DNA from: an uncultured Chloroflexia bacterium
GTDB taxonomy: Bacteria; Chloroflexota; Limnocylindria; Limnocylindrales; CSP1-4
DNA length: 64,000 bases
Assembly: GCA_963779315.1 (NCBI GenBank)
Contig: CAVZXQ010000018.1
Span: 114,623 to 178,622, forward strand
Direction: 5' to 3'
Positions 3,630 to 56,338 of this stretch are shown here, piece by piece. Positions within the stretch are counted from its first letter, which is position 1. Each line of letters starts with the position of its first letter. The position numbers were made by a program, and so were the translations under genes. The notes under the pieces are model-generated. The model saw only the letters and a list, made by a program, of their open reading frames with translations. It was not told the origin of the DNA and did no database searches.

Positions 3630-4458
3630 GTGTTCGGGCTGATCTCGGCGGCCGCCTGGGGGACCGGTGACTTCGGTGGTGGACTCGCCAGCCGACGGGC
3701 CCCGGTCTTCGGCGTCGTCCTGATCTCCCAGTTCATCGGTATGGCGATGGCCTTCGGCCTGGCCGTCGTTCGCGCCGAGGGTCTTCCACCCGTCACGGAC
3801 CTGGGTTGGAGTGTGGCCGGCGGGATCGCCGGCGGGATCGGCATCGCCAGCCTGTATCGCGCCCTGTCCATCGGTCGGATGGCCGTCGTCGCCCCGGTCA
3901 CGGCCGTGCTGGCCGCCTCCATCCCGGTCGTGGTCGGGTTCGTCCTCGACGGCCTGCCGGACCCCGTCGTGCTGGTCGGGATGGGACTGGCCATCGTCGC
4001 CGTGGTCCTCGTGTCGCGGATCGAGGACGGCTCCGGCGGTCGATCGCGCGGGCTGGGCCTGGCGCATCGTGGCGGGCGTCGGGTTCGGGTTGTTCGGCGT
4101 CTGCATCGGCCAGCTGAGTGCGGGTCATGTCTTCGGCCCGTTGGCCCTGGTCCGAGCGACCGAGGCGGTCATGATCGGCGGCCTCGTGTTGGTGACTCGC
4201 TCGCCGTGGCGGCCACCTCGCGACCTGGTCCTGGCGATCTGCGGCGTCGGCGTGATGGACATGGTCGGCAACGGTGCCTACATCCTGGCCGTCCAGGCCG
4301 GCTCGCTCGCGGTCGCGGCCGTCCTCTCGTCGCTGTACCCGGTCACGACGGTGATCCTGGCGACGATCTTCCTGCGCGAGCGGGTGACCCGTGTCCACGC
4401 CTTCGGGATCGGCCTGGCGGCGATCGCGGTGGTGCTGATCGCGGCGGGGTCCGCGTAG
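3630..4458 (+). CDS. EamA/DMT family transporter; frame break near 4040.
   Basis: Polytopic membrane protein with two halves of 4-5 TM helices each. The C-terminal part is in ORF 3811..4458. Confidence 0.6.
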
Positions 4459-15140: not shown

Positions 15141-16724
15141 CTAGAACCGGCGCCAGCGCCGGCCGTCGCGGGCGAGCAGCTCATCCGAGGCGGCCGGGCC
15201 CCACGTCCCGGCGTCGTAGTCGGGGAAGACCGGTGGCGGGGCAGCTGCCCACGACTCCACGATCGGATCGACGATGCCCCAGGCTTCCTCGACCTCGTCC
15301 GCCCGCGTGAACAGCGACGCATCGCCCTGGAGCGCGTCCAGGATCAATGTCTCGTAGGCATCGGGCGAATCCACGTTGAAGGCGGAGCCATAGGTGAAGT
15401 CCATCGTCACCGACCGGACATCCAGTCCGAGCCCTGGGACCTTGGCCCCGAAGCGCAGCATGATCCCCTCGTCCGGCTGGATCCGGATCGCCAGCAGGTT
15501 GGCATCGGGCTCGACGCCCTCGTCCTTGAACAGGCGGTGCGGGACCTCGCGGTACTGGATCGCGATCTCGGTGGCGCGCTTGGGCAGCCGCTTGCCGGTG
15601 CGGACGTAGAACGGCACCCCGGACCAGCGCCAATCGTCGATGGTCAGCTTGGCCGCGACGAAGGTCTCGGTCTCCGACTCGGGGTCCACCTCCGCTTCCT
15701 GTCGGTAGCCCGGGACCTGGGTGGCGGCCACCCAGCCCGGCCCGTACTGCCCGCGGACGACGTCGCCGGCCTTGCCGTCTACCGGCAGCGCTCGAGATCG
15801 CGCGCAGGACCTTGACCTTCTCGTCGCGCAACGCATTCGCCTCGAAGGTGGCCGGCGGCTCCATCGCGATCAGGCTGACGAGCTGGAGCAGGTGGTTCTG
15901 CAGGACGTCGCGGGACGCGCCGGTCTGCTCGTAGAACGAGCCGCGACTCTCGATGCCGATCGACTCCGCCACGGTGATCTGGACATGGTCCACGTAGCGT
16001 CAATTCCAGAGCGGCTCGAAGATCCCGTTCCCGAACCGGAAGACCAGCAGGTTCCGGACGGTCTCCTTGCCCAGGTAATGGTCGATGCGATAGACCTGCG
16101 ACTCGCGGAAGACCTTGCCGACCTCGCGATTGAGACGCTTGGCCGACTCGAGGTCATGGCCGAACGGTTTCTCGATGACGATCCGGCGCCAACCGCTGTC
16201 GCTTCGCTCGTGGTCGAGTCCCACCCGCCCGAGCCCGGCGATGATCCCGGCGAACTGCGACGGCTGGATGGCGAGGTAGAACAGGTGGTTGCCGCGCGTC
16301 CGGTGCTCGGGATCGACGGCTGCCAGGCGGGCGGCGAGCCCTTCGAAGCCGCCCGGGTCGTGGAAGTCCAGGTGGTGATACAGGACCCGCTCGGCGAACG
16401 TGGCCCAGGCTGCCTCGTCGAGCGGCAGGGCCCGACTGTTCGTCTCGACGGCGGTGCGCATCTCCGCCCGGAACGAGTCGTCATCGAATGGACGCCGGCC
16501 CACTGCCAGGAGCGACGAACTCGTGCGGCAGTAGGTTCGTCCGCCAGAGCTGGTAGATCGCCGGGATCACCTTTCGATGAGCGAGATCGCCGGTCGCTCC
16601 GAACAGCACGACCACCGCTGGGTCCGGCACCCGTTCCAGCCGCAGGCCCTGGCGCAGGACGTTCTCGGCAGGCTTCGACGCGCGAGGGACGACGGGTCTG
16701 CCGGGCCAGCCGCTGGTCCTTCAT
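15141..16724 (-). CDS. zwf: Glucose-6-phosphate 1-dehydrogenase; several frame breaks.
   Basis: Motifs [30 protein letters not shown] and EKPFG are present, and the C-terminal domain is in ORF 15141..15836. Confidence 0.8.
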
Positions 16725-20478: not shown

Positions 20479-20806
20479 ATGCCCAAGCGAAACGGTTCCG
20501 GGATCGAGCTGCTGGCGGATCCGACGAGGCGTCGGATCATCGCCGAGCTGGCGTTGTGCCCACGTCGACCCTCGTCGCTGTCTGCGATCCTGGGCCTCAG
20601 CCGGCCGGCGACGACACGCCAGCTCCATCTCCTGCGCGATGCGGCATCTCATCCAGGCTCGCCGGTCGACGCTCGACGGGCGCGTCGTCATCTACGGCAT
20701 CGAGCCGCGTGCCCACGGACCGATCACGGCCTGGCTTGCAGGAACGCAGGTCGGTCGGCCCATCGCGCTCAGGCTCGAGGAGGATGGCGCGCTCAGTCGT
20801 CTCTGA
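20479..20806 (+). CDS. Winged-helix HTH regulator, ArsR-like; frame break near 20640.
   Basis: Contains IELLADPTRRRIIAELA...LSAILGLSRPATTRQLHLLRDAG. The C-terminus ...RVVIYGIEP... is in a shifted frame. Confidence 0.5.
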
Positions 20807-20825
20807 ACGGCGGGTGCCGTCGGCG

Positions 20826-20920
20826 ACCGTCGCCCCGTTGAACCGCGTCCCCCGTTGAACCGCGTATCCCCGGTGACCACGCGTGCCCCGGTGAACCACG
20901 CGTGCCCCGGTGACCCCCGC
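20826..20920. repeat. Five imperfect tandem repeats of about 18 bp, cccc(g)gtgaaccacgcgtg.
   Basis: Read directly in the convergent intergenic region between the regulator and tkt. Confidence 0.5.
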
Positions 20921-21049
20921 GCGCGACCCAACCCGGAAGGGCCATCCGATCGATCGTTTCGCTTGATCGGAACGACCTGGGAATCGCCGCGCAGCGAGGG
21001 CAGTCCTCCCGAGCGGAGGGATGGTCGCGCCGCTACGCTGCCGCTCAAT

Positions 21050-23102
21050 CCGCCGTGGACCCCGCCCAGCGTCGGGATCCGGCCGCGAAGCCCGTCGCGC
21101 ACGACCCGTCGAGCGACCTCGGTCACCCGTTCCGACGTGAAGCCGAACCGCTCGAGGATCGTCCCCGCCGGGGCCGACGCGCCGAACTGATCGAGCCCGA
21201 TGATCGCCCCCTCGTCGCCGACCCAGCGCTCCCAGCCCATCGAGACGCCCATCTCGATGCTCACGCGGCGGCGAACCGACGGCGGCAGGACCGTATCCCG
21301 GTACGCCTGGTCCTGGGCCTCGAACGCCTCCCAGCACGGGAGCGACACGACCCGCGTCGGGATGCCCTCGGCCTCCAGCGTCTCGGCGGCGGCGAACGCC
21401 AGCTGGAGCTCGGAGCCGGTCGCCAGCATGATCAGCTGGGGCGTCCCACCGTCCGCTTCGCGGAGGACGTAGCCGCCCCGCGCGACGCCGTCGCGCGCTC
21501 CCGTGTCCGTGCCCGGCAAGGTCGGCAGCTTCTGGCGGGTCAGGGCCAGCGCCACCGGTCCACCCGATCGCTCCACGGCCAGCGCCCAGGCCGCGGCGGT
21601 CTCGTTGGCATCGCCCGGCCGGACGAACCAGAGGTTCGGGATCGCCCGCAGCGCCGCGTAGTGCTCGACTGGCTGGTGCGTCGGGCCGTCCTCGCCAAGC
21701 CCGACCGAGTCGTGCGTCCAGACATAGACCGCGTGCAGCCCGGACAGCGCGGCGAGTCCGCACGGACCCGCGCATGTAGTCGCTGAAGGTCAGGAACGTC
21801 GCGACGTACGGGATGAATCCGCCGTGATAGGCAAGACCGTTGGCGATCCCGCCCATCGCATGCTCGCGAACCCCGAAGCGCAGGTTCCGCCCGGACGCCT
21901 CGGCGCTGAAGTCATCGGCTCCCTTGACGTCGGTCAGGTTGGACTCGGACAGGTCCGCGGCCCCACCGAACAGTTCGGGCACCCGGGTGGCGAGGGACTG
22001 GATGGCGTCCTGGCTCGCGTTCCGCGTCGCGACTTCCGACCCGGTCTCGTACTCCGTGAGGTCCGCGTCCCAGCCCGCCGCCAGCTCCCCGGCCATGCGC
22101 CGGCGGAATTCGGCAGCCAGGGCCGGGCTCGACGCCGCATAGGCCGTGAACCGGGTCTCCCACTCGGCGACCAGCGCGTCACCGGCCGGGATCGCGGCAC
22201 GGAACAGCGCTCCGGCCTCGTCCGGCACGTAGAACGACCGATCCGGATCCCAGCCGTAGGCCTCCTTGGTCGAGGCGGACCTCGTCCGCACCGAGCGGCG
22301 CCCCGTGCGCCTTCTGGGAATCCTGCTTGTTCGGGCTGCCGAAGCCGATGTGCGTCCGGACGGCGATGAGGCTCGGTCGCTCGTCGGCTCGCGCCGCCTC
22401 GATGGCCGCCGTGATGGCCTCGACGTCATTGCCGTCTGCGACGCGCTGGGTGTGCCAGCCGTAGGCATCGAAACGGGCCGGCACGTCCTCCGACCAGGCC
22501 ATCTTCGTCGGCCCGTCCAGCTGGATCAGGTTGTCGTCGTACAGGACCACGAGCTTCCCGAGCCGCAGATGGCCGGCCAGGCTGGCCGCCTCTGACGCGA
22601 TCCCTTCCTGGAGGTCGCCGTCCGAGGCGATGACGTAGGTCCGGTGATCCACGATCGTGCCGTCCGGTCCGTCCTGGTTGAACTCGGCCGCGAGGCGCCG
22701 CTCCGCGATGGCCATCCCGACGGCATTCGTGAAGCCCTGGCCGAGTGGTCCCGTCGTCGCCTCCACGCCGGGCGTGACGCGGTATTCGGGATGCCCGGGC
22801 GTGATGCTGCCCCATTGGCGGAACGACTGGAGGTCCTCCATCGAGACGTCGTAGCCCGTGAGGTGGAGCAGCGAGTACAGCAGCATGCTGGCGTGGCCGG
22901 CGCTGAGCACGAACCGGTCGCGATCCGGCCAGTCCGGGTGCGTCGGCGCGTGTCGCAGGAACCGTGTCCAGACCGCGTAGGCCATCGGGGCGGCGCCCAT
23001 GGGGGCTCCCGGATGCCCGGAGTTCGCCTTCTGGACACCGTCGATCGAAAGCGTGCGGATGGTGTCGATGGCGAGTCGGTCGAGATCGGGCGGGGCAGTC
23101 AT
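21050..23102 (-). CDS. tkt: Transketolase; frame breaks.
   Basis: The N-terminal TPP-binding motifs (GHPG..., GPLGQG, DGDLQEG) are present, together with middle and C-terminal domains in ORFs 20597..22468 and 20692..21576. Confidence 0.8.
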
Positions 23103-23185
23103 CGGTGGGCGCTCCGGAGGGCAGGGGAGGATGCCCGCCATTGTAGGTCGCAGACGTGACCGTCCGGACCGGTATGCTCGCCACA

Positions 23186-24183
23186 TGCCGGCGATCAGAC
23201 CGCCCCGCCCTCACCGACCACGCCGTCCCGGTCGCCCCGGACGTGGCCGTTCCTCGGCCGCCGGAGCCCCGCGGATCGTGGTCCTTGGCGACCTCGTCCA
23301 GGATGTCGTCCTTGCTCCGGCCGAACCGATCGCCATCGGCACGGACGTGCCGGGCCGTGTCTCGATCGTCCAGGGTGGCTCGGCGGCGACGACGGCGCGC
23401 TGGCTGGCTCGCCTGGGTGCCCGCAGCAGCATGATCGCCGCGGTCGGCCGGGATGGCGCCGGCCGGGCCCTGGTCGCGACCATGGAGGCGGACCGGGTCA
23501 CGATGCGGGTCGTCCGTGTCGTCGGCGCCCGGACGGGTCGCATCGGCGTCCTCGTCGCGCCCGGCGGAGAACGCAGCTTCGTCACCGACCGTGGCGCGGC
23601 GCTGCTGTTGGCCCCCGGCGACCTCAAGGCGGCCTGGTTCACCGAGGCGGACCTGCTCCACCTGACCGTCTACTCGCTGCTGGGTGAACCGCTCCACGAA
23701 TCGGGCCTTCGAGCGATCGAACTCGCGCGAGCCGCCGGGGCGCTCGTCAGCCTGGACCTCGCGTCGATCGGCCCGCTGCTCGCCGGTGGACGACGGGCCG
23801 CCCGCGACCTGATCGCCGGGATCGCACCGGACGTCCTGTTCACGACCGCCGTCGAGGCCGACGCGCTGCTGGCCGGCCAGGCCGTCACCGGCCTGCTCGA
23901 GTACGCGGCAGTCGCCGTGGTCAAGCGCGGATCGAAGGGCGCCACGGTCCTGGCCCGCACCGATGCCGAGCCCGTCCGATTCGAGGTCGCCACGGCCCGC
24001 CTGGCCGCGACCGACACGACCGGCGCCGGCGATGCCTTCGATGCCGGGTTCCTGGCGGCGTGGCTCGGCTCTCGCGCGAGTGGCCGCTCGTTGCCGGCCT
24101 CGCTCCAGCGGGCCGCCCTGGCCGGCCATCGCGCCGCCGGTCGTCAACTGTCGACGCCGCGCGCCGAGCTGGTGCTGGGCTGA
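23186..24183 (+). CDS. PfkB-family carbohydrate kinase.
   Basis: C-terminal [14 protein letters not shown] is the PfkB anion-hole motif. The gene is divergent from tkt. Confidence 0.7.
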
Positions 24184-29963: not shown

Positions 29964-32092
29964 TCAGCCGCGCAGGTAGCGATCGAACCAGGCGAGCATC
30001 CGGGTCTGGCGGTCGATCCGCCGGTCCGGACGTCCCGCGTTGCCGTAGACGTGGGACTCGTTCGGGTAGAGGACGTATTCCACGGTCCGCTTCAGCTGGC
30101 GGAGCGCGATGAACAGCTGCTCGTTGTCGTGCGGCGGGCATTGCAGGTCCGCCTCTCCCTGCAGCATCAGCAGCGGGGTCCGGATCGTCGACACGTGGCG
30201 CAGGGGCGACTGGCGCCACAGGAGGTCCACGCCGGCAGGGCTCAGGGTATCGCCGAGCAGCGACGCGCGGTCGTACTCCGGCCCGGAGTCCGAGTTCGCC
30301 CAGTCCGAGACCTGGTTGGTCACGCCGTTCTCCGATACGGCCGCAACGAACCGGTCCGACGTCCCGACCAGCCAGTTGACCATGAATCCGCCGTACGACA
30401 GCCCAAGGACGCCGAGTCGGGTCGGGTCGGCGAGGCCAAGGGCGATGACGTGATCGAGGGCCGCGTGGACGTCGTCCGCATCCACGCCGCCCCAGTCGCC
30501 CAGCTGCGGTCGGATCCAGTCCCGGCCGTACGAAGCGGACCCCCGGATGTTCGGCAGGACCACCCGGTAGCCGGCGGCCACCAGCAGGATGACCTCGATG
30601 TGGGGGGCCGGCGCCCAGGCGCCGAGTGGACCGCCGTGGACGTCGACGACGGTGGGAAGAGGCCCGGAGCCGGCATCCGGCGGTGACGCGATCCAGGTCT
30701 CGATCGGTCCTCCGGGACCGGGTGCGTCCACGCGGGACATGACCGGCATCGGGTGGCGTCGCTGCCATGTGGAGCCGATCCTCGTCCGTATCCGGGGCGT
30801 TGCAGCCGGCGCCTCGGGAGCGGCGAGCGTGGACAGTTCCATCGCCCGGACCCCGTCCGTCCCGAGCCAGCTGATGGCGCCGGCCGCCGGGCCGTGGGTG
30901 GCCACCGCCAGGGAGTGGGTGGCGATGTCGCCGCCCACGAGGGTCTGGCGTGAGACCGGTCCGTCGATCCCGGCCGGGAGGCGGAAGGCCGTTGGATGTG
31001 ACCGGCCACGATCGGTGACCGTCGCGATGATCGTGTCCTGCGCCGGCCAGTAGGGTCCGGCCCGGCTCGAGACCATCCAGCCGGTGAGGTCCGTGTCCGC
31101 CCAGTGCCCGATGGGGCGGTCCAGGTCGGGGGTCAAGCGCGAGTGGTGGCCGGGCGTCGTGCCCGTCCGTCGGACCGACGATCAGTCCGGGGCTGAGGTC
31201 GTCGAGCGGCTCCGGCTCCAGCAGGCCGATCGCCACGATCCACCGTCCGTCCGGAGACCACGCCGGATGGTTCGCCCAGCCTGCGGGGGCGAGGACCTCG
31301 CGCGGTTCGTTGCCAGGATCGTCCTGGCGCGTCCACGTCGACCGCCCAGATCGTGGTCCGCGGGTGGAGGTCCGGGTCTGGACCGCGGGCCGAGGTGAAT
31401 GCCACGGTCCGCCCATCCGGACTCCAGGCGATGTCCGACACGCCCCAGTCGCCAGAGGTCACCTGGCGAGGCGTGGCGCCCGGGCGAGCCTCGACGACGA
31501 AGAGGTGCGACCAGCGATCGAGGTGCCCGATGCCATCCCAGCGCCAGTCCGTGCGGGTGATCCGCCGCGCGGTGGGCGAGGTGTCCTGATCCGTCAGCAC
31601 GTGGTGCCGACCCGCCGGCAGCACGTCGCCGACCAGGAAGCGCGGCGGGTCCACTTCGGCCGTGAACGCAAGACGCGTCCCGTCCGGCGACCAGGCCAAC
31701 TCGCTCGCGGACCCGAACGCACCCGCGCGGATCTCGTGGATCCGGCCGCCGGCCATCGGCATGAGGCAGACGCGGGGGATGGCCCATTCGTCGTCGGTCT
31801 GGTCACGGATGAACGCCACGTGCCTGGCGTCCGGGGAGATCCGGGGCCAGCCGTCGCGCACGCGGCCGCTCGTGAGCTGGTGCGGCGCGGCGCGCGAACC
31901 GGGCGCGGGCCGACCGCCACGCTGGCCGGGGCCGAGCGGCAGGCTGAACAGGTGGGTCTGGTAGCGATCACGCCGGATGATCCGTCTCGCGACCACCGCC
32001 ACGCTGCCATCCGCGGCCATGTCGTGCTCGTCCAGGACCACCTGGCGGCGGATGTCCGCCGGGGTCATGGGTCGTCGTTCGGTCACCGTCAC
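29964..32092 (-). CDS. S9-family serine peptidase (prolyl oligopeptidase/acylaminoacyl-peptidase type). It has an N-terminal PD40 propeller and a frame break near 31136.
   Basis: The propeller repeats are LAWSPDGTRLAFTA and IAWSPDGRTVAFTS. The C-terminal alpha/beta hydrolase has GLSYGGF with the nucleophile Ser. Confidence 0.75.
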
Positions 32093-32131
32093 AGCCTAGC
32101 GGTACCGGCGTCGATGGCGGCAGGGCGATGC

Positions 32132-32192
32132 GGCCCACGGGCCACCGTTCAGGGCTCACGCCGCGCGGCCCACGGGCCGCCGTTCAGGGGCC
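32132..32192. repeat. Direct repeat, two copies of cggcccacgggcc[ag]ccgttcaggg.
   Basis: Read directly from the sequence. Confidence 0.5.
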
Positions 32193-32230
32193 CCACCCAC
32201 GCCCAGGCCGCGTGCCCACAGGCCCAGACT

Positions 32231-32420
32231 TCGTGTGCACCACACGACCATTTGGACCACGATGGTCGTGCACCTTGGTCGTCGCGTGCATCGGGTGCAC
32301 CATCCGGCGAACCTGGACCCCATCCGTCGCCGTCCGGTGCACCGGATGCACCGACTGGACACGGAGATGGCCTTGCGTGTCCTAAATGGTCACCCGGTGC
32401 ACCAAGCGTCAACGGCCCGG
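32231..32420. repeat. GTGCAC-rich intergenic element, copy A; homologous copies at 42991-43205 and 55487-55640.
   Basis: Contains at least six GTGCAC(C) hexamers, the core ggtgcaccggatgcacc and the tail gcgtgtcctaaatggtcacc[ct]ggtgcacc. This tail is shared with copy B, and copy C has the related gtccgaaatgtgcgcctggtgcacc. Confidence 0.6.
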
Positions 32421-32421
32421 G

Positions 32422-32580
32422 GCGGCCGGCAGTCCGGCGGCCCGGCCCCGACGCCCCGGCGGCCGGCAGTCCGGCGGCCCGGCCCCGACGCCCCGGCGGC
32501 CGGCAGTCCGGCGGCCCGGCCCCGACGCCCGGCGGACCGGCCCCGGCCCCGACGCCCCGGCCCCGACGGCCCCGACGGCC
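32422..32580. repeat. Tandem repeat of a 37-bp unit, gcggccggcagtccggcggcccggccccgacgccccg, in three copies plus degenerate copies.
   Basis: Three exact or near-exact contiguous units lie at 32422-32532, followed by Pro/Gly-codon-like degenerate units. The block is bracketed by the short direct repeat gcgtcaacggccc. Confidence 0.7.
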
Positions 32581-32664
32581 CCGCTCGGCCCGCCCGTGCA
32601 CTGGCGTCAACGGCCCTCTCGACCGCCCGGCGACGGGCGCACGACAGGCGCGCTACGCTCACCC

Positions 32665-39956: not shown

Positions 39957-41403
39957 ATGGAACCCTGGGAACTGACAGCTGTCGAACTGTCGAAGGCCCT
40001 GCAGCACCGGGAGATCTCGGCGGTCGAGGCCCTGCATTCGGTCCTCTCACGCGCCGAGGCCGTCGGTGAGGCCGTGAACCCCTTCTCGGTCGATCTCTAC
40101 GAGCGAGCCCTGCATGCGGCCTACGCGGCGGACGCTCGCCTTGGGCGGGGTTCGGGCGGACCGCTGGCCGGTCTTCCGATCAGCGCCAAGGACTCGCAGT
40201 GGCTGGCCGGCGTCGAGAGTGCTCACGGGTCCCTCTCGATGCGCGGCTTCGTGCCGGACAAGACGGCCGTGGTCCTGGAGCGCCTGGAACAGGCCGGGGC
40301 CGTGATCTTCGCCAAGACCGCGGTGCCCGAGTTCTGCTACACGGGCATCACCGAATCGCCCATCAACGGCCGGACGTGCAATCCGTGGGACCTCGCCCGG
40401 ACGCCGGGTGGGTCGTCGGGCGGCGCCGGCGCGGCGGTCGCGGCGGGCATCGGCCCCATCTCGATGGGCGGCGACGGCGGCGGGTCCATCCGGATCCCGT
40501 CCGCGTTCTGCGGCATCGTCGGGTTCAAGCCGACGTTCGGCGCGGTGGCCCGCGAGCCATCGGCCGAGGCCTGGAAGACGCTGGTCTCCGTCGGTCCGAT
40601 GGCCCGGACCGTCGCGGACGTCCGTCTCGTCATGCCGTACATCACCGGCGCGGACCCACGCGACCTGTACTCGATCGACGTCCCGCTCATCGGGCAGCCG
40701 GCGCCGGACCCGCACGGGCTCGTCGTCGTGGCGTCGGAGGACCTCGGGATCGCGCTCGTCGACGACGACGTCCGATCGGCCTTCCGCATCTCCCTGGCGG
40801 CCCTTCGTTCCGCGGGGGTGACCGTCGTGGAGGACACGCCGGGCCTGCCCTCGTCGGTCGAGACGTGGGCGGCGATCGCGGGCTACGAGGCGTATCTCGC
40901 CGAGCATCATGTCCTGCGCGACACGCCGGAGATCCTCACCCACCAGGCGCGCGGCTTCATCGAGTTCGGCGAGTGGCTCGGCGAGGAGAAGTACAACGAG
41001 GCGCTCGAGTACCGCAAGGACATCCACGCCGCCTACCTCGCGATGTTCGAGCGGACGGGCGCGCACGTGCTGCTGACGCCGACGCTTGGGCCTCGAAGCC
41101 TTCGCGCACGGCTCCACCTACCCGATGGAAGTGGGCGGCCAGCCGATGGACCCGGTCTGGCGCGACTGGGCGCCGATGCTCTACGACGCCAACCTGTGCG
41201 GCTTCCCGGCCGTGGCGCTGCCGATCGGCCTCGGCGACGACGGACTGCCGGTCTCGATGCAGGTGCTGGGCCTCAACCGCACGGACGGGCTGACGCTCGC
41301 CACGGCCGAGACCATCGAAGGTGTCCTGGGCCGGTCCAGCCGACCGCCCGAGCCATTCCGCGATCGGCCCATCAGCGAAGATGCGGTGATCCAGGCGGCC
41401 TAG
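39957..41403 (+). CDS. Amidase-signature enzyme; frame break near 41085.
   Basis: The AS-family catalytic core GGSSGGAGAAVAAG...GGDGGGSIRIPSAFCG is present. Confidence 0.8.
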
Positions 41404-41432
41404 GACCCAGGCGGGGCAGCGGGAGGACACTC

Positions 41433-42893
41433 ATGGCGCGATCGCGACGCACCCTCCGCGGGATCTCGGAGATCCGCGCCTACCTGCGGACCAACCGGCG
41501 GCCCATCTACTTCATCTCGCCGACGCCGTTCAACCTGCTGGGCATCGATCGCTGGGTCCGCAACTTCTTCTTCGTCAACTGGTACGACAGCTTCGATGGG
41601 ACCCATCCGCGGGTGTTCGTGCCGCATTCGCGGCCGTACCACGAGTGGACGTCCATGGAGGAGATCACCAACGAGCTCCTTCGCCACCCGGAGGTGGAGG
41701 CGTTCATGCGGACCAAGGCGAAGCGCGGGCTGGCGGCGTTCGTCATGTTCGACGAGGAGAGCGAGGCGCTGGCGCGCCAGGTCGGGCTGCGCGTCATCCA
41801 CCCGAAGGCGTCGCTGCGGCGGTTCATCGATTCGAAGACCAACACCGTCCGGCTGGGCAACGAGGCGGGCGTGCCGTCCGTCCCGAACGTGCTCGCGAGC
41901 GTGGGTTCGTGGCGGGAGCTGCAGCGGGTCGCGCACCGGGCGCGGCTGGGCGACGACCTCGTCATCCAATCGCCCTATGGCGATTCCGGGCGGACCACCT
42001 ACTTCATCGCGAGCGAGGACGACTGGGCCACGTACGGCGAGGAGATCGCCGAGGCGCCCGAGGTCAAGGTCATGCGCCGGATCCGCAACCGGGCCTTCGC
42101 GGTCGAGGCCTGCATCACGCGCCACGGGACGATCGTGGGACCGGTGATGACGGACCTGACCGGGTTCAAGTCACTGACCCCGTACAAGGGCGGCTGGTGC
42201 GGCAACGACCTGTGGCCCGGAGCGCTGCTGCCCGAGCAGCAGGTGGCCGCCCGCAAGATGATCCAGCGCCTGGGCGATCGCCTGGCCGCCGAGGGCTATC
42301 GCGGCTTCCTCGAGATCGACATCCTGCTGGACCTGGACACCGAGCGAGGTCTATCTCGGGGAGATCAACCCGCGGGTGTCCGGCGCCAGCTCGCTGACCA
42401 ACGTGACCGCCGGCGCCTACGCGGACCTGCCGCTGTTCTGCTTCCACATCCTGGAGTACCTCAACGTCGACTACGAGATCGACGTCGACGACATCAACGA
42501 CCGCTGGGCGGAGGCCTCGACCATCGACATGTGGAGCCAGCTGATCATCAAGGAGCCGCACGACCGGGTGGAGCGGCTGGTGTCCGCGCCGCGGACCGGG
42601 ATCTGGCGGTTCGAGCCGGACGGGTCCATCCGCTTCGGGCGGTGGGGGAACGACTGGCATTCCATCCTGGACGGCAGCGAGGCCTTCTTCCTGCGGGTCC
42701 TGGCCCCCGGCGACTACCGCTACAAGGGCGCGGACCTGGGCACGCTCGTGACGCGCTCGCGGATGCAGACGGACAAGCTGAACCTGACCAAGCGCTGCAA
42801 GCAGTGGGTCGCCGGCATCCACGAGCAGTACGTGGGCATCCCCGTCGGGAACGAGCCGGAGATCTTCATCCCGCCGCCGTTCAAGGGCTGAGG
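41433..42893 (+). CDS. ATP-grasp domain protein, PGM1-like ligase; frame break near 42350.
   Basis: Contains ...GYRGFLEIDILLD... and LGEINPRVSG, with a long pre-ATP-grasp N-terminus. Confidence 0.55.
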
Positions 42894-42990
42894 CCGTCGG
42901 GCGGGGGGCGGAGTGGGTGCCGCGCCGCCCCCGCCGCGCCGCCCCTGCGCCGCGCGCGTGCCGCCCCCGCCGCGTGGGGCGCCCGTCGAC

Positions 42991-43205
42991 CGGATGTGCA
43001 TCTCGTGACCATTTACGCCAAGCAGACCCGCATGGTTGTCCGAATGGTGCACGCAATGCACCGACCGTCCAACGAGAGGCGTCATCTTGTCCGCGCGGTG
43101 CATCCGGTGCACCGCGCGGCCAGGGAGTCGAGTCTGCGTGTCCTAAATGGTCACCTTGTGCACGCCCCGACCATCGCCGCGACCAAGTCAGCGCACCGGA
43201 CCCAG
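42991..43205. repeat. GTGCAC-rich intergenic element, copy B.
   Basis: Contains ggtgcatccggtgcacc and gcgtgtcctaaatggtcaccttgtgcac, upstream of sigma gene 1. Confidence 0.6.
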
Positions 43206-43244
43206 CGCAGCAGACCCAGTGCTGGCCCCGCCCGGCCCAGGCCC

Positions 43245-43291
43245 ACACCACGTGGGACACTTCGCCCCTCCCGTGACATCTATGGGGCATG
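43245..43291 (+). promoter_or_regulatory. Promoter block of sigma gene 1, duplicated at 48066-48101.
   Basis: gggacacttcgcccctcccgtgacatctatggggcatgg is near-identical in front of sigma genes 1 and 2, and the related motif catctgtggggcatg sits before sigma gene 3. The block abuts the ATG, so the transcript is probably leaderless. Confidence 0.45.
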
Positions 43292-43835
43292 GTGGCTGAA
43301 CTGACGACAGTGCGAGGCATCGCGGCATCGACCGTGGCGGACGCCGCGGCCGGCGACGCGGATGCGCTCGCCCGGATCGTGGGTGCCCATCACGACGACA
43401 TGGCGCGCATCTGCTACGTCATCTGCGGCGACCAGGACATGGCCCAGGATGCCGTCCAGGCCGCCTGGCCCGTCGCCTGGCGCAAGCTCGGCTCGCTGCG
43501 GGACCCGGAACGGCTGCGACCCTGGCTGATGGCCGTCGCCGCGAACGAGGTCCGCCAGGTCATGCGCCGCCAGCGCCGGCACCAGGTCGTCGAGATCGAG
43601 GTCGCCGACATCGGGTCCTCGCACGGTGACCCGGCCGCCAGCTCCGCCCTGACCGATCTTGCCGTGGCCCTTCGGCGGCTGACTCCCAGAGGACCGCACC
43701 CTGCTCGCCCTGCGCCACGTTGCGGGCTTCGATGCGACCGAGATCGGTCGCGAACTCGGGATGTCGCCATCGGGCGTCCGCTCCCGCCTCGCTCGCCTGC
43801 TCGAGCGCCTCCGAACGGAGCTGGCAGATGTCTGA
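43289..43835 (+). CDS. ECF/sigma-70 family sigma factor 1; frame break near 43685.
   Basis: Contains region 2 (...AVQAAWPVAWRKLGSLRDPERLRPWLMAVAANE) and region 4 (LLALRHVAGFDATEIGRELGMSPSGVRSRLARLLERL). Confidence 0.75.
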
Positions 43836-45370
43836 CTCGACCTTCGAGACCCTGCTTACCGGGCAGCTCCGCGAATACGCCGAAGCCGGCGTCCGACCGA
43901 TCGACCGCTACGCGATCGCCGAGGCGATCATCTCCCACTCGGTGGCCGCCGGCACGCAGCAGCGCGGCTCGGCGCTGGCGAGCCCTCTGGCGATCAGCGG
44001 TCGACCAGCCGAACGCCGCTCGTCGCCGCGCTCCTGCTCGTCGGCCTGCTCATCGCGCTGATGGGGGTCATGCTGCTGCCGGGCGCGCGACCGCTGTTCC
44101 CGGCCGTCGTCGAGCCCGACGGCCTCCGCGACGACCGGTCCTGTGGGCGTACCAGCCGAGGGGCCGCCGATCGCGTCTCCCGCCGAATTCCCATCGGCGT
44201 CGTCCGAACCGGTGCCCGGCCAGGGTGTCATGACCCGGGTCGCGGACATGACGGAGGGTCGGATCGAGCCGGTGATGGTGACGCTGACGGATGGCCGCGT
44301 CCTGATCGTCGGTGGCTTGTCGATCGATGGCGTCCCCGACGCGCCCGCCGAGATCTTCGATCCGTCGACCGGGCGGTTCGTCACCGTCACCACGCCCGAT
44401 TCGGTGATCGGCGACGGCTCCGGCTCCGGCGTGCTCCTTCGGGATGGCCGGGTCCTTGTCGTCCTGTACAGCGGCAACCACCTCGCCTCGTCGATCCACG
44501 TCTTCGATCCGCAAGCGATGACGTGGACCCGAGTCACCGCGAAGGGTTTCGAGGGCAACGAGCTCGATGGCAGCGGCCCGATCCGACGGTATCCGACGCT
44601 GACCCTGCTCCGTGACGGTCGCGTGCTGCTGTCCGGCGGCGAAGTGAACTCCCCCGGCGGGGGAACTGGGACCGTTGTGGATACAGCGGAGATCTTCGAT
44701 CCGGTGACGGGGACACTTTCGCCGACCGGGTCGATGACGAAGCCGCGCACGGGTCACTCGACCACCCTCCTGCCGGACGGTCGCGTGCTGGTGGCAGGCG
44801 GAAGGGGTCTATGCGACACGATACGGGACAGTCTCAGGTTCTGCGATCTTCCAGACCTCCAGGACGCGGAGATCTACGATCCGGCGACCGGGACCTCCAT
44901 GCCGACCGGCCCGATGTCGGGCGTAGCGCGGCGTGACCGAGGGCATGCTGCTGCCAGACGGCCGGGTCCTCGTCCTGTCGATCTCGTTAGCTTCTAGGTC
45001 GGACGGGACCGACGGCCCCGGTCTGGCCGAGATCTATGACCCAGCGAGCGGAACGTTCGCGGCCGCGGCGTCCACTCCACACGGGGCCCGGACGGCAACG
45101 CTCCTTCCGGATGGTCGAGTCTTCCTGACCGCCCCGTGGGAAGAGCTGCCGGCCACGAACGACCAAACCGGTCCATTCACGATCTGGTCCGGGATCTACG
45201 ACCCGGCGACCGGTTTGACGCAGGATGGACCCGCTCCTCCGGCCGGGCGGCAGCAGCCGGCCCTCCTCGCCGACGGACGCATCCTGCTCGTCGGGGGTGA
45301 GGTGAACAGGCGACCGTTGGACGGCCCGCCGGACTCGGCTCCGTGGGCGGAGCTCTACGAATGGCGCTGA
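43828..45370 (+). CDS. Membrane anti-sigma-like protein with an extracytoplasmic Kelch-type beta-propeller; frame breaks.
   Basis: The start overlaps the sigma stop (ATGTCTGA). The N-terminus MSDSTFETLLTGQLREYAEAGVRPIDRYAIAEAI is followed by a TM helix (LVAALLLVGLLIALMGVML) and repeated ...DGRVL[VL]xGG...[IV][FY]DPxTG[TR]F... Kelch-like blades. Confidence 0.6.
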
Positions 45371-45491
45371 TCGCCCGGCTCAACCACGACTTCGGCGCGA
45401 CGCAGGAGATCACATCAGTGACGGCGTGGCGGCCAGCAGCCCACGCCTCAGGCCCACGCCTCAGCCCACCCAGGCTGCAAGGAGATCCGGT

Positions 45492-46634
45492 ATGAACGTC
45501 ACTCGACTCGCCGCTCCGCACCAGGTCCTGCTCGTCGTCGTGGCGGTCGTCCTCGGCGCGTGCAGCCCCGCGGCCGCACCCCCGTCAGGCGCGGTCTCGC
45601 CCAGCCCATCTCCGGCCGCGATCGCCTCCAGCGCATCGACTGCGTCGCCCGCCGCGACGCCGCCTCCCGCGAGCCCAGCGCCCATCGCCGTCAAGGACGG
45701 CGTGCCGTGGATCGTCTATCAATGGGACCCGGAGCGTGGACAAGGTCTCTACCTCATGCGTCCGGACGGAAGCGACGCCCGCGAGATCTCGACGAACCTG
45801 ATGGGGGAGGCCGGCAACCCGGACTGGTCACCCGATGGGAAGAAGATCGCCTTCGAATTGATGGTCAGAGACAACGTCTTTGAGATCTGGACGGTGAACG
45901 CTGACGGCACCGATCCACAGCGGCTCCTCGCCTGCGAAGCCGCCCCATGCGTCCAGGTTGGCGTCCCGGCCTGGTCGCCCGACGGCAAGCAGCTGGCCTT
46001 TGGGCGACTGGTCAACCCCACCGGGAACTACCAGGACGACCGAGTCACGATCGAAACAATGGACCTGGCGACCCGCGCGTCTCGCGTGATCGCGGTCGCG
46101 CCCGCCGCGGACGCTGAGTACGCCGACTACGTCAACGCGCGGTGGTCGCCCGACGGCAAGCAGGTCGTCTTCCAGATAAACACCTACGCAACGCCCCCGA
46201 CGAACGAGAGCCTGCTCGGCAGCTCCATCGCGGTCGTCAACACGGACGGGAGCGAGGTCAACAGTCCGCGGATCCTGACCGACGCGGCGATATTCGGCTC
46301 GTATCCCGATTGGAGCCCCGACGGCAAGCACATCGTCTTCAACACGAACAACCTGCTCTCCTTCCAGACCACGACGAAGGCATCGAACCTGTACACGATC
46401 CGCCCCGACGCGAGCGGATTGACCCAGGTCACTCACTACGGGGACAACGACGCCCGGGCGACCCAGCCGAGCTGGACACCGGATGGCAGGCAGATCATCT
46501 TCACCGATGTCCTGTTCAACCCGGCAAACCCGTACGGCGACCGGCACGCTGCGTTCATCGACCCGGATGGCTCGGATCTCACGGTCCTCGACGGTCCCTT
46601 CGCAACGCACCCGCGCCTGCGCCCGACACCCTAG
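45492..46634 (+). CDS. PD40/TolB-like beta-propeller lipoprotein with a C-terminal HPRLRPTP tail; intact.
   Basis: The lipobox is VVLGAC, followed by a Pro/Ala/Ser linker and the motif PIAVKDGVPWIVYQW. Repeats of WSPDGKxIAF follow, and the C-terminus is ...FATHPRLRPTP. Confidence 0.75.
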   Translation: MNVTRLAAPHQVLLVVVAVVLGACSPAAAPPSGAVSPSPSPAAIASSASTASPAATPPPASPAPIAVKDGVPWIVYQWDPERGQGLYLMRPDGSDAREISTNLMGEAGNPDWSPDGKKIAFELMVRDNVFEIWTVNADGTDPQRLLACEAAPCVQVGVPAWSPDGKQLAFGRLVNPTGNYQDDRVTIETMDLATRASRVIAVAPAADAEYADYVNARWSPDGKQVVFQINTYATPPTNESLLGSSIAVVNTDGSEVNSPRILTDAAIFGSYPDWSPDGKHIVFNTNNLLSFQTTTKASNLYTIRPDASGLTQVTHYGDNDARATQPSWTPDGRQIIFTDVLFNPANPYGDRHAAFIDPDGSDLTVLDGPFATHPRLRPTP

Positions 46635-46668
46635 TTGTAGTTCCCGGGGTTTGTGAGACACGGTGCCG

Positions 46669-47440
46669 GGCTCAGACTGGCATCAACTCGGCGAGCCATC
46701 CCTGCAGGTGATCGAGTGCCGGCACGCGCTCGAAGCCGCGAGCCGTGAACGGGGTGCCATCGAAGCGCTCGGCCGGGGTGTGCCAGTCCAGTTCGCCGTG
46801 CAGTCGGTCGTAGTTGTAGTAGGCCGCGAAGTGGGTGAGCCCATCGGACGCGGCGTCGAGCGTCCGGAAGATCTGGCGGTCGAGCAGCTCCGACTGGAGG
46901 ATCCCCCAGAAGCGCTCGATCTTGCCATTCGTCCAGGGCGAGTTCACCTGGGTCCGGATGTGCCGGATGTGGAGCTCCTCGAGGGTCTTGCCGAAGAGGG
47001 TCAGGACGCCTGGCATCCAGACGACGAACGGGCGTGCCGTTGTCGCTCATCAGCTCGAGTGGCGTGCCGCACAGCTCGACGCAGTCGTCGAGCCAGGCGA
47101 GGATCGGTGCGGCCCGCGGCTGGGCCAGGACGCGCAGCCCGATGAGGAAGCGCGAGTGGTCGTCGACGAGGCCGACGATCCAGACCTTCTCGTACTCGCG
47201 GACCGAGCGGCGCAGGAAGAACGGTCCCTTGATGTCGATGTGCCAGAGCTCGTTGGGCCGCACGCGCTCGTAGGCCGGACCACGGGCACGGCGGGTCGAG
47301 GGCCGGGCCGTCCCGAACTCGGCGAGCAGGCCGTCGACCGCGTGGTGATCGAGCGGGCAGGTGCTCGACCTGGCCAGGATGGCTGAAACGTCCTCGGTGT
47401 AGCTCGCCACGCCGCCCCTCGATCCTGGCATGCGTCGATC
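46669..47440 (-). mobile_element. IS481/IS3-like rve (DDE) transposase remnant; frameshifted and probably N-truncated.
   Basis: The segments ELWHIDIKGPFF, VGLVDDHSRF, LMSDNG and NSPWTNGKIERFWGILQSELLD are present, split between ORFs 46631..47476 and 46672..47016. Confidence 0.65.
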
Positions 47441-47719
47441 ACCTGCCCCCAGCCTGACGCGCGCATTCGTCCGCATCGAACCAACCCAGCGAGGAAGTCA
47501 CGAGCAGGTCAGGCCCGAGGGTCCTCGCGATGCTCGCAGGGGCGCTCATCGCGCTCAAGGCATGGCTGTCTCGTCGATCGACGCGGTGGTTCGTCGGAGC
47601 CCGAGCTCGACGACGAGGTAGGTTGGTCGGGGCGAGAGGCATTGCCCCGCGACCACCGACCTTCCGATCACGATGCGGCTCGCCGAGCCTCCAGAGCCCT
47701 TCGACTGGCTGCGGAGCGC

Positions 47720-47977
47720 ATGACGCGACGGCGCCTCCACCCCGCCGAGCGCGCCACCGATCGTGAGGTCGGCGTGGTCACAGCCGTGCTCGTGACCGGG
47801 TCGGAGAAGGCGGCCGCCCACCGCCTCGGCCTGTCGCACTCGACCGTGAAGCACCACCTGGCGAACGCGAGGTCGAAGGTCGGGGCCGACACGACGGCGC
47901 AGCTAGCGTGGATCCTGGGGCCTCGGCTGCCGGAGCCCGAGGGCATGGCCGAAGCGGATGAGCAGCGGTCTGCTTGA
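47720..47977 (+). CDS. Small LuxR/GerE-type HTH protein.
   Basis: TDREVGVVTAVLVTGSEKAAAHRLGLSHSTVKHHLANARSKVGADTTAQLAWIL matches the LuxR C-terminal HTH. Confidence 0.5.
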   Translation: MTRRRLHPAERATDREVGVVTAVLVTGSEKAAAHRLGLSHSTVKHHLANARSKVGADTTAQLAWILGPRLPEPEGMAEADEQRSA

Positions 47978-48098
47978 CGCGGTCGTGGATGGCCCGCAGG
48001 CGTTGATGGTCCGGCACTGATCCCGCCCGCGACGCCCGATGTCGCGCTCCGCAAGGAGGCTGTGGGACACTTCGCCCTTCCCGTGACATCTATGGGGC

Positions 48099-48645
48099 AT
48101 GGTGGGTGAACTGACGATCCCAGGCGGCATCGCCGCATCGACCGTGGCGGATGCCGCGGCCGGTGATGCGGATGCGCTCGCGCGGATCGTGGGCGCCCAC
48201 CACGACGACATGGCCCGCATCTGCTACGTCATCTGCGGCGATCAGGACATGGCCCAGGACGCGGTCCAGGCCGCCTGGCCGATCGCCTGGCGCAAGCTCG
48301 GCTCCCTGCGCGACCCGGAGACGGCTCCGGCCGTGGCTCATGGCCATCGCCGCCAACGAGGTCAAGCAGGTCATGCGCCGGCAGCAACGTCATGGGGTGG
48401 TCGAGATCGAGGTCGCCGATATCGGCTCGTCGCACGGCGATCCGGCGGCCCGATCCGCCCTGACCGATCTGGCCGTCGCGCTGCGCCGACTCTCGCCCGA
48501 AGACCGAACCCTGCTCGCCCTGCGCCACGTCGCCGGCTTCGATGCGACCGAGATCGGTCGCGAACTCGGGATGTCGCCGTCAGGCGTGCGTTCCCGCCTG
48601 GCTCGCTTGCTCGAGCGTCTCCGATCGGAGCTCTCCGATGACTGA
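48099..48645 (+). CDS. ECF/sigma-70 family sigma factor 2, a paralog of sigma 1; frame break near 48320.
   Basis: Near-identical to sigma 1 at the protein level and carries the same upstream block. Confidence 0.75.
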
Positions 48646-49942
48646 CATGACCTTCGAATCCCTGCTGAGCGGACAGCTCCGCGAGTACGCCCAGGCCGGC
48701 GTCCGACCGATCGACCGATACGCGATCGCCGAGGGGACGATAGAGGCGGGACGGCCGAGGGTTCGCTGGAGCCGGTCGTTCGTCCGGACGCGCCGAACGC
48801 TCACGCTCGTCCTGGTCGGGCTGCTGATCATGGCCCTCGCGGCGAGCGGTGCCCTGGTAGCAAGCCGGTTGCTCAAGCCCCATGCCGCATACCAGGGGAT
48901 CCTGGCCTCCGTCGGCCCGACCTATGGCGAGATGCCGTGGGACTTCGCCTCCGCCGCATTGGCTGACGGGACGTTCGCCATCCTCGCAGGCGATGGACGG
49001 ACCGTGCTGATCTGGGATCCCGAGTCCGGCCAGACACGTCCAGCCGGGACGCTGGCGATCATGCGCGGCCAAGCCGGCTATCTACAGAGGCCGTCGATGA
49101 TCGAACTCGAAGACGGGACGATCTTCCTGACGGGGGATGCCTCGGGGACCGACGATCCGATGACGTGGGAGCGATTTGACCCGAGTACAGGTCGATCCGT
49201 GGCCACCGGCGTGTTCGACTCGACACACGCCAGGTTCGATTCGTCCCTGGTCAGACTGTCCAACGGAAAGGTCCTGATCGTGGGCGGTCAGGGGCAGTCC
49301 TTTTCGCCGGGGGACGCCAGGGCGAGCCTTTGGGATCCAACGACGAACGCCCTTCGACCGATCGAGTCCATGGACGCAGGCCGACGACGGCCATGCCTGA
49401 CGACCCTTCTGGATGGTCGCGTGCTCGTCGTCGGCGGTACGCCGGAAGCCCGCAGTGCCGAACTCTATGACCCGGCGACCGAGACGTTCGAGCGCACCGG
49501 GCTCGCGCTTGCGGGTTACGGCAGGGCTGCCACGCGGCTCGAGGATGGACGCGTGCTCGTCCTTGGCGCAGCGCTCACCAGCGGGCTCGTGGACCTGGCT
49601 GAAGGACACGACGCCTCGACGGTGATCTACGACCCAACGACCGGCGAGTTCGCGCAAGGTCCGACCCTACCCCGCGCAGGGGACCTCGTCGCCGCGCTGC
49701 CGTCAGGCCAGATCCTGGTCGTCGGAGGGTGGACGTACGAGGGCCGCCCCGATTCAAACCCGTGGGCCGGACTTCTCGACCTCGCGACCGGCGCGACCAC
49801 ACAGATCGCCACTCCTGATCGGATCGCGTTCGACATCCACCTCCTGCCGGATGGAGCGCCCGTCCTGGCAGGCGGCGTGTCGCCCTTCGAACAGTTGGTC
49901 ACACCAGTCGAGATGACCTGGGGTCAGGTCCTCCGCCAGTAG
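48638..49942 (+). CDS. Anti-sigma-like membrane protein with a Kelch-type propeller; intact, 434 aa.
   Basis: The N-terminus MTDMTFESLLSGQLREYAQAGVRPIDRYAIAEG is followed by the TM helix LTLVLVGLLIMALAASGALVA and five or six DGRVLVVGG...YDPxT blades. The start overlaps the sigma stop. Confidence 0.7.
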   Translation: MTDMTFESLLSGQLREYAQAGVRPIDRYAIAEGTIEAGRPRVRWSRSFVRTRRTLTLVLVGLLIMALAASGALVASRLLKPHAAYQGILASVGPTYGEMPWDFASAALADGTFAILAGDGRTVLIWDPESGQTRPAGTLAIMRGQAGYLQRPSMIELEDGTIFLTGDASGTDDPMTWERFDPSTGRSVATGVFDSTHARFDSSLVRLSNGKVLIVGGQGQSFSPGDARASLWDPTTNALRPIESMDAGRRRPCLTTLLDGRVLVVGGTPEARSAELYDPATETFERTGLALAGYGRAATRLEDGRVLVLGAALTSGLVDLAEGHDASTVIYDPTTGEFAQGPTLPRAGDLVAALPSGQILVVGGWTYEGRPDSNPWAGLLDLATGATTQIATPDRIAFDIHLLPDGAPVLAGGVSPFEQLVTPVEMTWGQVLRQ

Positions 49943-55413: not shown

Positions 55414-55486
55414 GTCGGCCCCCGGCCCCGCGCCACCCGCGGCCCGCCGTCAATGGTCCTCCCGGCGTCAGGCCCCCGTCCGTGGC

Positions 55487-55640
55487 CGGATGTGCACCCA
55501 TGCCGATGGCCACGAGCCGTCCGGTGCATCCGCACGCACCTTGTCGGCCAACGAGAGTCCCACTGGTCCGAAATGTGCGCCTGGTGCACCAACCGGCCGA
55601 CAAGGCCCGCGTGCTTGTCCCAAATGAGTCATGGGGCGCA
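55487..55640. repeat. GTGCAC-rich intergenic element, copy C.
   Basis: Contains ccggatgtgcac, cggtgcatccgcacgcacc and gtccgaaatgtgcgcctggtgcaccaacc, upstream of sigma gene 4. Confidence 0.55.
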
Positions 55641-55785
55641 CACGGGGATCCTGGGCCTGCGGCCCACGCCGCAGGTTCATCTCGTGGCCCGGCGCTGCGC
55701 GGCGAGAAGATGGAACGATGTGGCGGCGATCTCGCCTCATAGTCTCGACAGCGGCCATACGGTCGCCACAGACTGGGTCGGCGAT

Positions 55786-56338
55786 GCAGCGAGATCTCGT
55801 CCTTCGCGCAAGCACTGGTGACCACGACGCGTTCGCGTCGCTGGCGACCGATGCGTACGGCCGGCTCCATCGCACCGCCCGGCTGATCCTCCGGCGCGAG
55901 GACCTGGCGTCGGACGCGGTCCAGGAGGCGCTCACCTCGGCCTGGCTCCACATCCGGGCCGTGCGCGATCCGGACCGCTTCGATGCCTGGCTCAACCGGC
56001 TCGTCGTCCGCGCCTGCCACACGGAGCTGCGACGGGCGAAGCGCGGGCCGATCGAGATCCACGTCGACACGATCGAGGCGCCCGGGGTCGACGACTCCGC
56101 CGGCGACCTGGCGGACCGCGACCAGCTCGAACGCGGCTTCCGGCGCCTGTCGGCCGAGCATCGCGCGGTCCTCGTCGTCCACCACTACCTGGGGCTGCCC
56201 GACGCGGAGGCCGCCACGGTCCTCGACGTCCCGATGGGCACCTACAAGTCCCGCCTCAATCGCGCCCACCTCTCGCTGCGCGCGGCCCTCGAGGCCGATG
56301 CGCGCGTCGCCGGGATCGGCAAGGAGTCCGTCGCATGA
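55786..56338 (+). CDS. ECF sigma factor 4, RpoE-like.
   Basis: Region 2 is DAVQEALTSAWLHIRAVRDPDRFDAWLNRLVVRA, and region 4 is VLVVHHYLGLPDAEAATVLDVPMGTYKSRLNRA. Confidence 0.8.

Follow-up and report, generated by a model that had tools for sequence, protein, structure and literature searches.

Three GTGCAC-rich intergenic stretches, two of them directly upstream of ECF sigma factor genes, are found in a 64,000-nucleotide piece of DNA from an uncultured Chloroflexia bacterium (hereafter the window, 70% G+C), raising the question of whether such DNA controls the genes beside it or belongs to a repeat that has entered there. The first-pass annotation had offered both answers, proposing either binding arrays for a regulator or a small non-autonomous repeat family. 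The stretches, at the places where they had been reported, are real copies of one non-coding repeat family of about 170 bp, and the second answer has turned out to be the better supported, given that the copies have inverted-repeat ends, are non-coding, occupy varied intergenic settings and are missing in relatives. Our preferred reading, to which we assign a probability of roughly 0.55, is that they represent a small, old, non-autonomous, MITE- or ERIC-like family of non-coding, imperfectly palindromic intergenic repeats of ~170 bp.

Membership in a common family was established by composition and by homology. Across the window the hexamer GTGCAC is not enriched (15 occurrences against 19 expected), with 10 of the 15 lying inside the ~0.5 kb that the three stretches make up. 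The octamer GGTGCACC occurs six times against 1.95 expected, a count reached in none of 100 shuffles, and five of the six octamers fall within the three stretches. A three-way alignment of the copies, designated A, B and C, revealed blocks of identity, and the profile derived from it matched only these three places in 64 kb, each of them on the reverse strand as well. Because scanning the window with a profile made from its own sequences is circular, the search was repeated with single-sequence nhmmer and with a leave-one-out profile. A pattern search with the right-end box brought in one more member, copy D, present in two samples with one and the same sequence (JGI metagenome contigs L112 and L113), which matched the whole profile with E = 9e-23. 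The contig has no other DNA in common with the window, and tblastx of the copy D locus against the window returned compositional noise only. Single-sequence searches linked A with B at E = 1.7e-10, D with A at 1e-9 and D with B at 4e-10; a profile of A, B and D, with C left out, recovered C at 5e-8 and gave no match beyond the known copies in 195 kb comprising the window and related loci. The repeat family is real, with C as its most degenerate member; three copies lie in a 24-kb part of the window and the fourth on another contig.

Each copy is built of four 17-bp dyad boxes (degenerate in C), and copy lengths were taken from the first box to the last, giving 170 bp for A and for B, 169 bp for D and 152 bp for C. 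Copy A (32234..32403, plus strand) has box starts 51, 51 and 51 bp apart: box L at 32234-32250 (TGTGCA-CCACA-CGACCA), P1 at 32285-32301 (CGTGCA-TCGGG-TGCACC), P2 at 32336-32352 (GGTGCA-CCGGA-TGCACC) and R at 32387-32403 (TGGTCA-CCCGG-TGCACC). The same 51, 51 and 51 bp separate the box starts of copy B (42995..43164, plus strand), where L lies at 42995-43011 (TGTGCA-TCTCG-TGACCA), P1 at 43046-43062 (GGTGCA-CGCAA-TGCACC), P2 at 43097-43113 (GGTGCA-TCCGG-TGCACC) and R at 43148-43164 (TGGTCA-CCTTG-TGCACG). In the degenerate copy C (55491..55642, plus strand) a 19-bp deletion after the first half-site has cost box L its right half, P1 (55523-55540) carries a 1-nt insertion, P2 (55574-55590) reads TGTGCG-CCTGG-TGCACC and R (55626-55642) reads GAGTCA-TGGGG-CGCACA. 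The box starts of copy D are 51, 51 and 50 bp apart. These limits shorten the spans given in the first-pass annotation, which had carried B to 43205 instead of 43164 and had taken the string gtccgaaatgtgcgcctggtgcacc for the tail of C; that string is C's third box, and what truly corresponds in C to the tail of A and B is GCTTGTCCCAAATGAGTCATGGGGCGCAC (55612-55640). Between A and B the tails differ at two positions, not at the single one reported.

The plan of the family combines two inner boxes of the form GGTGCA-N5-TGCACC with two hybrid outer boxes, the left being TGTGCA-N5-TGACCATTT and the right its inverse. The left box, TGTGCA-N5-TGACCA, is followed by TTT, and the right end reads AAA-TGGTCA-N5-TGCAC. 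The sequence (T)GTCC-N4 precedes each of boxes 2 to 4, and the element can alternatively be parsed as three direct 51-bp units with one inverted unit at the left end; repeat finding also detects repetition within the element, offset by 51 bp. Every element can be matched to its own reverse strand, and its two ends are inverted repeats of each other, with a complementarity that in copy B stretches to about 35 nt. For the end motif GTGCA-N5-TGACCATTT, 0.04 occurrences are expected in the window and four are present, at both ends of A and of B; it stands at both ends of copy D as well. Allowing up to two mismatches, the box pattern has no other occurrence in the 64-kb window, and boxes never occur singly there. 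The elements are lower in G+C (60-65%) than the window (70%) and have no coding capacity: none of six long element-crossing open reading frames that were looked up is on record as a called gene or found in the protein collection, the translated copies are only 38% identical to one another, and the indels between copies are of 1 and 19 nt.

The gene context of the three copies agrees with that first described. The left half of the window is given to housekeeping genes (transketolase, glucose-6-phosphate dehydrogenase, citrate synthase, photolyase). Copy A separates the divergent S9/PD40 peptidase gene, on the minus strand, from psuG and is ~140 bp away from the start codon of the peptidase. Copy B, flanked by a 485-aa gene adjoining an amidase gene and by ECF sigma gene 1 (ATG at 43289), ends 125 bp upstream of the latter, and copy C, flanked by a PD40 gene and by sigma gene 4 (on record at 55784-56338), ends 141 bp upstream of that sigma gene. 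The sigma paralogues at 48099 (sigma 2) and 52396 (sigma 3) have no copy upstream. Copy D falls within the 308 bp that separate the two stop codons of a convergent pair, an amidohydrolase gene (minus) and a malate synthase gene (plus), so that divergent, co-directional and convergent settings are all represented.

The right part of the window, 43247-64000, is itself repetitive and consists of a module in which an ECF sigma gene is followed by Kelch and PD40 beta-propeller genes, with sigma genes at four places (43289, 48099, 52396, 55784) and no fewer than eight PD40 genes in all; 43252-43927 and 48062-48737 are 88-91% identical. Module number varies among relatives, and on L114 a HAD hydrolase gene runs straight into sigma 4. 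Between 46.6 and 48.0 kb lie a degenerate rve-family transposase (46631-47476, minus) and a LuxR-type helix-turn-helix ORF (47642-47977). The rve remnant is the only transposase remnant in the window, and the end motif flanks neither it nor the LuxR-type ORF. The syntenic locus L111 lacks a 4.8-kb segment, 43247-48061, that begins exactly where the insertion carrying copy B has its right edge. The segment holds the duplicated sigma 1, one Kelch and one PD40 gene, the rve transposase and the LuxR-type ORF.

The comparison with relatives drew on syntenic loci with 84-86% DNA identity to the window in flanking DNA (L110, L111), on more distant ones (L001-L003) and on nine contigs with ten sigma-4-type genes (L114-L122, L122 having two), whose looked-up proteins belong to the 90%-identity cluster of the window's sigma 4. 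The element is absent from L001-L003, L110 and L111, and no copy lies upstream of the ten sigma-4 orthologues of L114-L122 or of that of L111. Synteny breakpoints placed all three copies inside window-specific segments, the flanking genes being the same in close relatives. The segment holding A (32087..32647) measures 561 bp against 73 bp in L110 and includes a 37-bp tandem repeat. That holding B (42892..43246) runs from the stop codon of the 485-aa amidase-neighbor gene to the conserved sigma upstream region and measures 355 bp against 19 bp in L111. That holding C (55414..55648) runs from the PD40 gene stop codon to sequence again alignable with L111 and measures ~235 bp against essentially nothing there. 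Flanking genes being ~85% identical, the intergenic DNA of the relatives does not align base by base, and we infer insertion from segment length and absence of the element rather than from a clean empty site, loss in the relatives being possible. Each insertion also carries G+C-rich, partly tandem-repeated DNA outside the conserved element. The 37-bp repeat beside A (32421-32541) is G+C-rich and comprises 3.3 units at 97% identity; upstream of A (32130-32195) the sequence gcggcccacgggccRccgttcagggg is duplicated, and upstream of B (42919-42976) there are G+C-rich repeats of 14-17 bp.

The regions just upstream of sigma 1/2 and of sigma 4, downstream of the elements, are kept in the relatives. 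For sigma 4 this region (55706..55783, plus strand), ~80 bp with a TGGAAC motif and present in all orthologues, aligns to L111 from 13045 onwards and to L114 at about 3925-4000. It is likely to be the native sigma 4 promoter region, independent of copy C, and may plausibly be a self-regulated promoter of the ECF type. Since the native upstream regions persist downstream of the elements, the elements are additions and not ancestral control regions. Synteny thus indicates that this genome received the elements at three intergenic sites, and that they do not belong to the regulatory DNA which the flanking genes had ancestrally. For annotation the message is a negative one: the elements should not be read as native control regions of sigma factor genes.

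The four copies have diverged unevenly. Overall pairwise identity among A to D is only 55-62%; the 48 half-site columns are 85% identical, against 49% for the 5-nt box centers and 50% for the DNA between boxes, with ~27% expected from base composition. A, B and D are separated by ~70 substitutions per pair, yet by at most one 1-bp indel, and their boxes stay in register. Of 28 dyad pairs 18 never vary, and the sole double changes are those of box 3 in copy D, where GGTGCA/TGCACC has become TGGTCA/TGACCA, the other half-site type, as found in the end boxes. As the half-sites are conserved, the center is free and the swap occurs only between permitted half-sites, recognition by a dimeric protein fits better than base pairing alone, and the pattern points to sequence-specific recognition, an interpretation drawn from four aligned sequences.

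These features suggest a model for the element. Its unit is 27 nt long, (T)GTCC-N4-GGTGCA-N5-TGCAC, and is repeated four times with a 51-bp period; the leftmost unit is inverted, which creates the terminal inverted repeats GTGCA-N5-TGACCATTT. The half-sites, GTGCA or GGTCA (GKKCA), are putative recognition sites of a dimeric DNA-binding protein, four dimers of which would line one face of the DNA, with ~five helical turns from each to the next. That protein would most likely be the transposase or recombinase that propagates the element, or else a host factor; a propagating protein is the most economical candidate, and a host regulator is also conceivable. An inserted copy could affect its neighbors through a strongly folding transcript or through protein bound upstream of the sigma promoters, and any such effect would be a by-product of insertion rather than the element's reason to exist.

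The closest parallel is with prokaryotic MITEs such as the Correia elements of Neisseria (PMC10969869), which are likewise below 500 bp, non-coding, intergenic and bounded by terminal inverted repeats, lower in G+C than their genome and predicted to give strongly folding transcripts, present in one genome and absent at the same positions in relatives, and able to land just upstream of genes. The copies studied here share the features by which MITEs are recognized, being shorter than 500 bp and non-coding, with terminal inverted repeats and several dispersed members that are absent at the same sites in relatives. They differ from MITEs in that their interior, far from being filler, has two more conserved dyad boxes that keep a strict 51-bp register with the end boxes, and in that four diverged copies are known, with neither a target-site duplication nor a same-ended parent insertion sequence: a search for flanking k-mers up to 40 bp from each end gave none that was consistent, and no autonomous element with the same ends was found in the window, nor any further profile match in the 195 kb of window and related loci. 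The flanking direct repeats of MITEs fade in old copies (PMC10969869), and a missing target-site duplication is therefore weak evidence against membership; this gap and that of a parent element together leave membership in the strict sense unproven. Further points count against the preferred reading, besides the intergenic DNA that does not align with that of relatives and the extra DNA in each insertion. The four known copies are old (~40% diverged) and give no evidence of recent transposition, and three of the four may lie upstream of beta-propeller operons, as a regulatory model predicts.

Other families of small repeats resemble the element in part. The ERIC or IRU sequences of enterobacteria, imperfect palindromes of 127 bp, are also intergenic and palindromic over the whole element, have spread in an unexplained way and have no associated transposase; they have no sequence similarity to it, belong to another phylum and are highly conserved over their whole length, where the element is conserved only in its half-sites. 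REP and BIME sequences with their RAYT transposases share with it the clustering of short dyad units, in both orientations, in intergenic DNA. REPs typically have a GTAGG prefix, with a conserved 5' GTAG tetranucleotide beside a palindrome of 20-40 nt. The boxes of the element are preceded by GTCC-N4, not by GTAG, and no RAYT gene was seen. BrickBuilt, a MITE of Porphyromonas gingivalis, is made of 23-nt units that follow one another directly and vary in number; in the element the units are always four, of 51 bp, with a dyad box in each. BrickBuilt, described as a minisatellite inside a MITE (PMC4596501), resembles the element in its small size, its inverted-repeat ends and its internal tandem repeat. 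Should the MITE- or ERIC-like reading be right, the copies would add to the small repeats a new family, from an uncultured soil bacterium of high G+C, a setting from which few have been described. The four dyad boxes, kept at an exact 51-bp period through ~40% divergence, would make good bait for the binding protein, whether transposase, recombinase or nucleoid factor.

Of the alternatives, the one that holds up best, though we regard it as unlikely, is an operator array, in which a dimeric transcription factor bound to four phased boxes upstream of ECF sigma/beta-propeller operons would repress or activate them by wrapping or looping the DNA. Its targets would be the S9-PD40 peptidase or psuG for A, sigma 1 for B and sigma 4 for C. 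Conserved half-sites with free central spacers, the box period of exactly 51 bp, the distances of B and C from the sigma start codons and the position of A in a divergent promoter region close to the peptidase start codon are all what such an array would show. The array is, however, absent at every orthologous promoter examined, including those on contigs whose sigma 4 protein is at least 90% identical, and from the sigma paralogues at 48099 and 52396, and the sigma genes retain their own conserved upstream region downstream of the element. Single boxes are found nowhere else in the window, and no candidate regulator is tied to the boxes; this includes the LuxR-like ORF and the ArsR-like protein named in the first-pass annotation, neither of which anything connects with them. 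Copy D, lying between the 3' ends of two genes, cannot be a promoter operator. Of the original proposal of regulator-binding arrays, half-site conservation and exact phasing thus speak for the binding and absence from the orthologous promoters against conserved cis-elements of the sigma genes, and a conserved operator for these genes is not supported by the loci compared.

A variant that joins mobility with regulation, and which we hold to be improbable, would make the element a portable, helically phased cassette of four protein-binding sites, on which a putative dimeric protein would assemble over ~170 bp of wrapped DNA. In moving between intergenic regions the cassette would bring new genes, here the ECF sigma/beta-propeller operons, under the control of that protein. 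The element would then be a mobile cis-regulatory module and not a mere selfish repeat.

Another idea, very improbable in our view, is that the element acts as a structured RNA, transcribed either within a 5' or 3' untranslated region or in the form of a small RNA, and serving as a stabilizer, a processing site or a terminator without a U-tract. Relative to shuffled controls, the predicted fold of copy A has z = -5.9 and that of copy B z = -5.9 on the plus and -5.5 on the minus strand. Pairing of the L with the R end is possible in every copy, and complementarity holds at 94% of dyad positions. Yet both strands fold equally well, the fold is weak for C (z = -2.7) and D (z = -2.0), and most pairs are invariant rather than covarying. 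In the end pairing the GTGTCC side is kept and its partner varies without compensating changes, and the copies share no common position relative to genes. Rfam 15 gave no match at the gathering score across the whole window, permissive scans of the A and B regions gave chance-level matches only (E = 0.15 and 0.58), and a consensus promoter and terminator scan around B detected nothing, a terminator tail included. The strongly folding transcript is likely, from these predicted structures, to be a consequence of symmetry rather than a selected feature.

Less probable still is a site for site-specific recombination, at which recombinase dimers would occupy phased sub-sites as in a Tn3-type res site or an att site with accessory arms, and which might act in the duplication and rearrangement of the sigma/PD40 module. 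A Tn3-type res site adjoins a serine resolvase gene; the proteins scanned around the copies include no resolvase, and no resolvase or integrase gene stands beside any of them, the Pfam-examined genes there being housekeeping, transporter, Kelch, PD40 and sigma genes plus the one rve remnant. Tn3-family res sites (PMC9943657, PMC2602789) do resemble the element in having several dimer-binding dyad sites with conserved outer motifs and free centers, and with a phasing that matters for the complex formed on them. A res site has three dimer-binding sites in 114 bp (PMC2602789), the element four in 170 bp. The element's dyad sites at ~five helical turns each follow TGTCC, the motifs of the Tn3 resolvase DNA-binding domain begin TGTCTGATA and TGTACCTTA (PMC9943657), and the window-specific 4.8-kb segment with its duplicated sigma gene starts just where the B insertion ends on its right. 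The motif likeness is limited to TGTCY, however; a broader resemblance to the resolvase binding motif, considered at first, was reduced to these letters on comparison with a published Tn3 site III sequence, and the sites of A, C and D show no associated rearrangement. Finally, chance likeness of G+C-rich, low-complexity intergenic DNA, suggested by the G+C-rich simple tandem repeats of the surrounding insertions, has a negligible probability and is already refuted by pairwise and leave-one-out E-values of 1e-8 to 1e-10, by four end motifs where 0.04 are expected, by an independent fourth copy with the same box order and length, and by a G+C content lower than that of the surroundings.

The repeat family was also sought in other collections. 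BLAST of copy B against plasmid and phage collections and two pattern scans of viral contigs gave no match, and a search of the published literature for the box sequence gave nothing relevant. A scan of GTDB genomes for two GTGCA-N5-TGCAC boxes 49-52 bp apart returned 106 loci, none of this family; as the pattern itself imposes palindrome and spacing, these loci say nothing about a universal motif. Considered as possible relatives, they resolved into unrelated tandem or REP-like arrays (Cohnella, Paenibacillus, Chloroflexaceae, Planctomycetota) and arrays of a 9-bp unit, GTGCACCNN (Acidimicrobiia, Streptomyces), unrelated by profile search. Avoidance of GTGCAC, an ApaLI-type recognition site, through restriction-modification was rejected as well: outside the elements a fourth-order Markov model predicts 4.2 occurrences of the hexamer and 5 are present, revealing no specific avoidance.

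Two kinds of array among the GTDB loci deserve description. Tandem arrays with units of ~50-53 bp, each containing a GGTGCAY-N3-RTGCACC hairpin, occur in Cohnella thailandensis, in a Planctomycetota MAG and in Chloroflexaceae and Chloroflexia MAGs (L013 2050-2350, L058 3870-4400, L063 2080-2330, L038 2810-3200, L047 7070-7220). In the REP-like arrays of Planctomycetota and Chloroflexaceae this same hairpin is preceded by GTAGG, as in REP elements and unlike the element, with which these arrays have only weak, partial profile similarity; the palindrome common to hairpin arrays and element may be coincidental, selected by the search pattern. The 9-bp GTGCACCNN arrays are intergenic (L080 5985-6080, L103 1975-2070, L049 3800-4102, L054 ~1150-1310, L036 1-250), and in an Acidimicrobiia MAG their units form two inverted blocks of four to five units each. 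They have the look of arrays to which a small, cooperative DNA-binding protein binds.

Many genes of the window are split by frameshifts, namely sigma 1 (43289-44233), which in this state is not on record as a gene, sigma 2 (48099-48641), the S9 peptidase (29964-32092), the amidase and its 485-aa neighbor (39957-42891), and transketolase and glucose-6-phosphate dehydrogenase (20597-23186, 15141-16503). With homologues intact elsewhere, these look like indel errors of a long-read assembly rather than pseudogenes.
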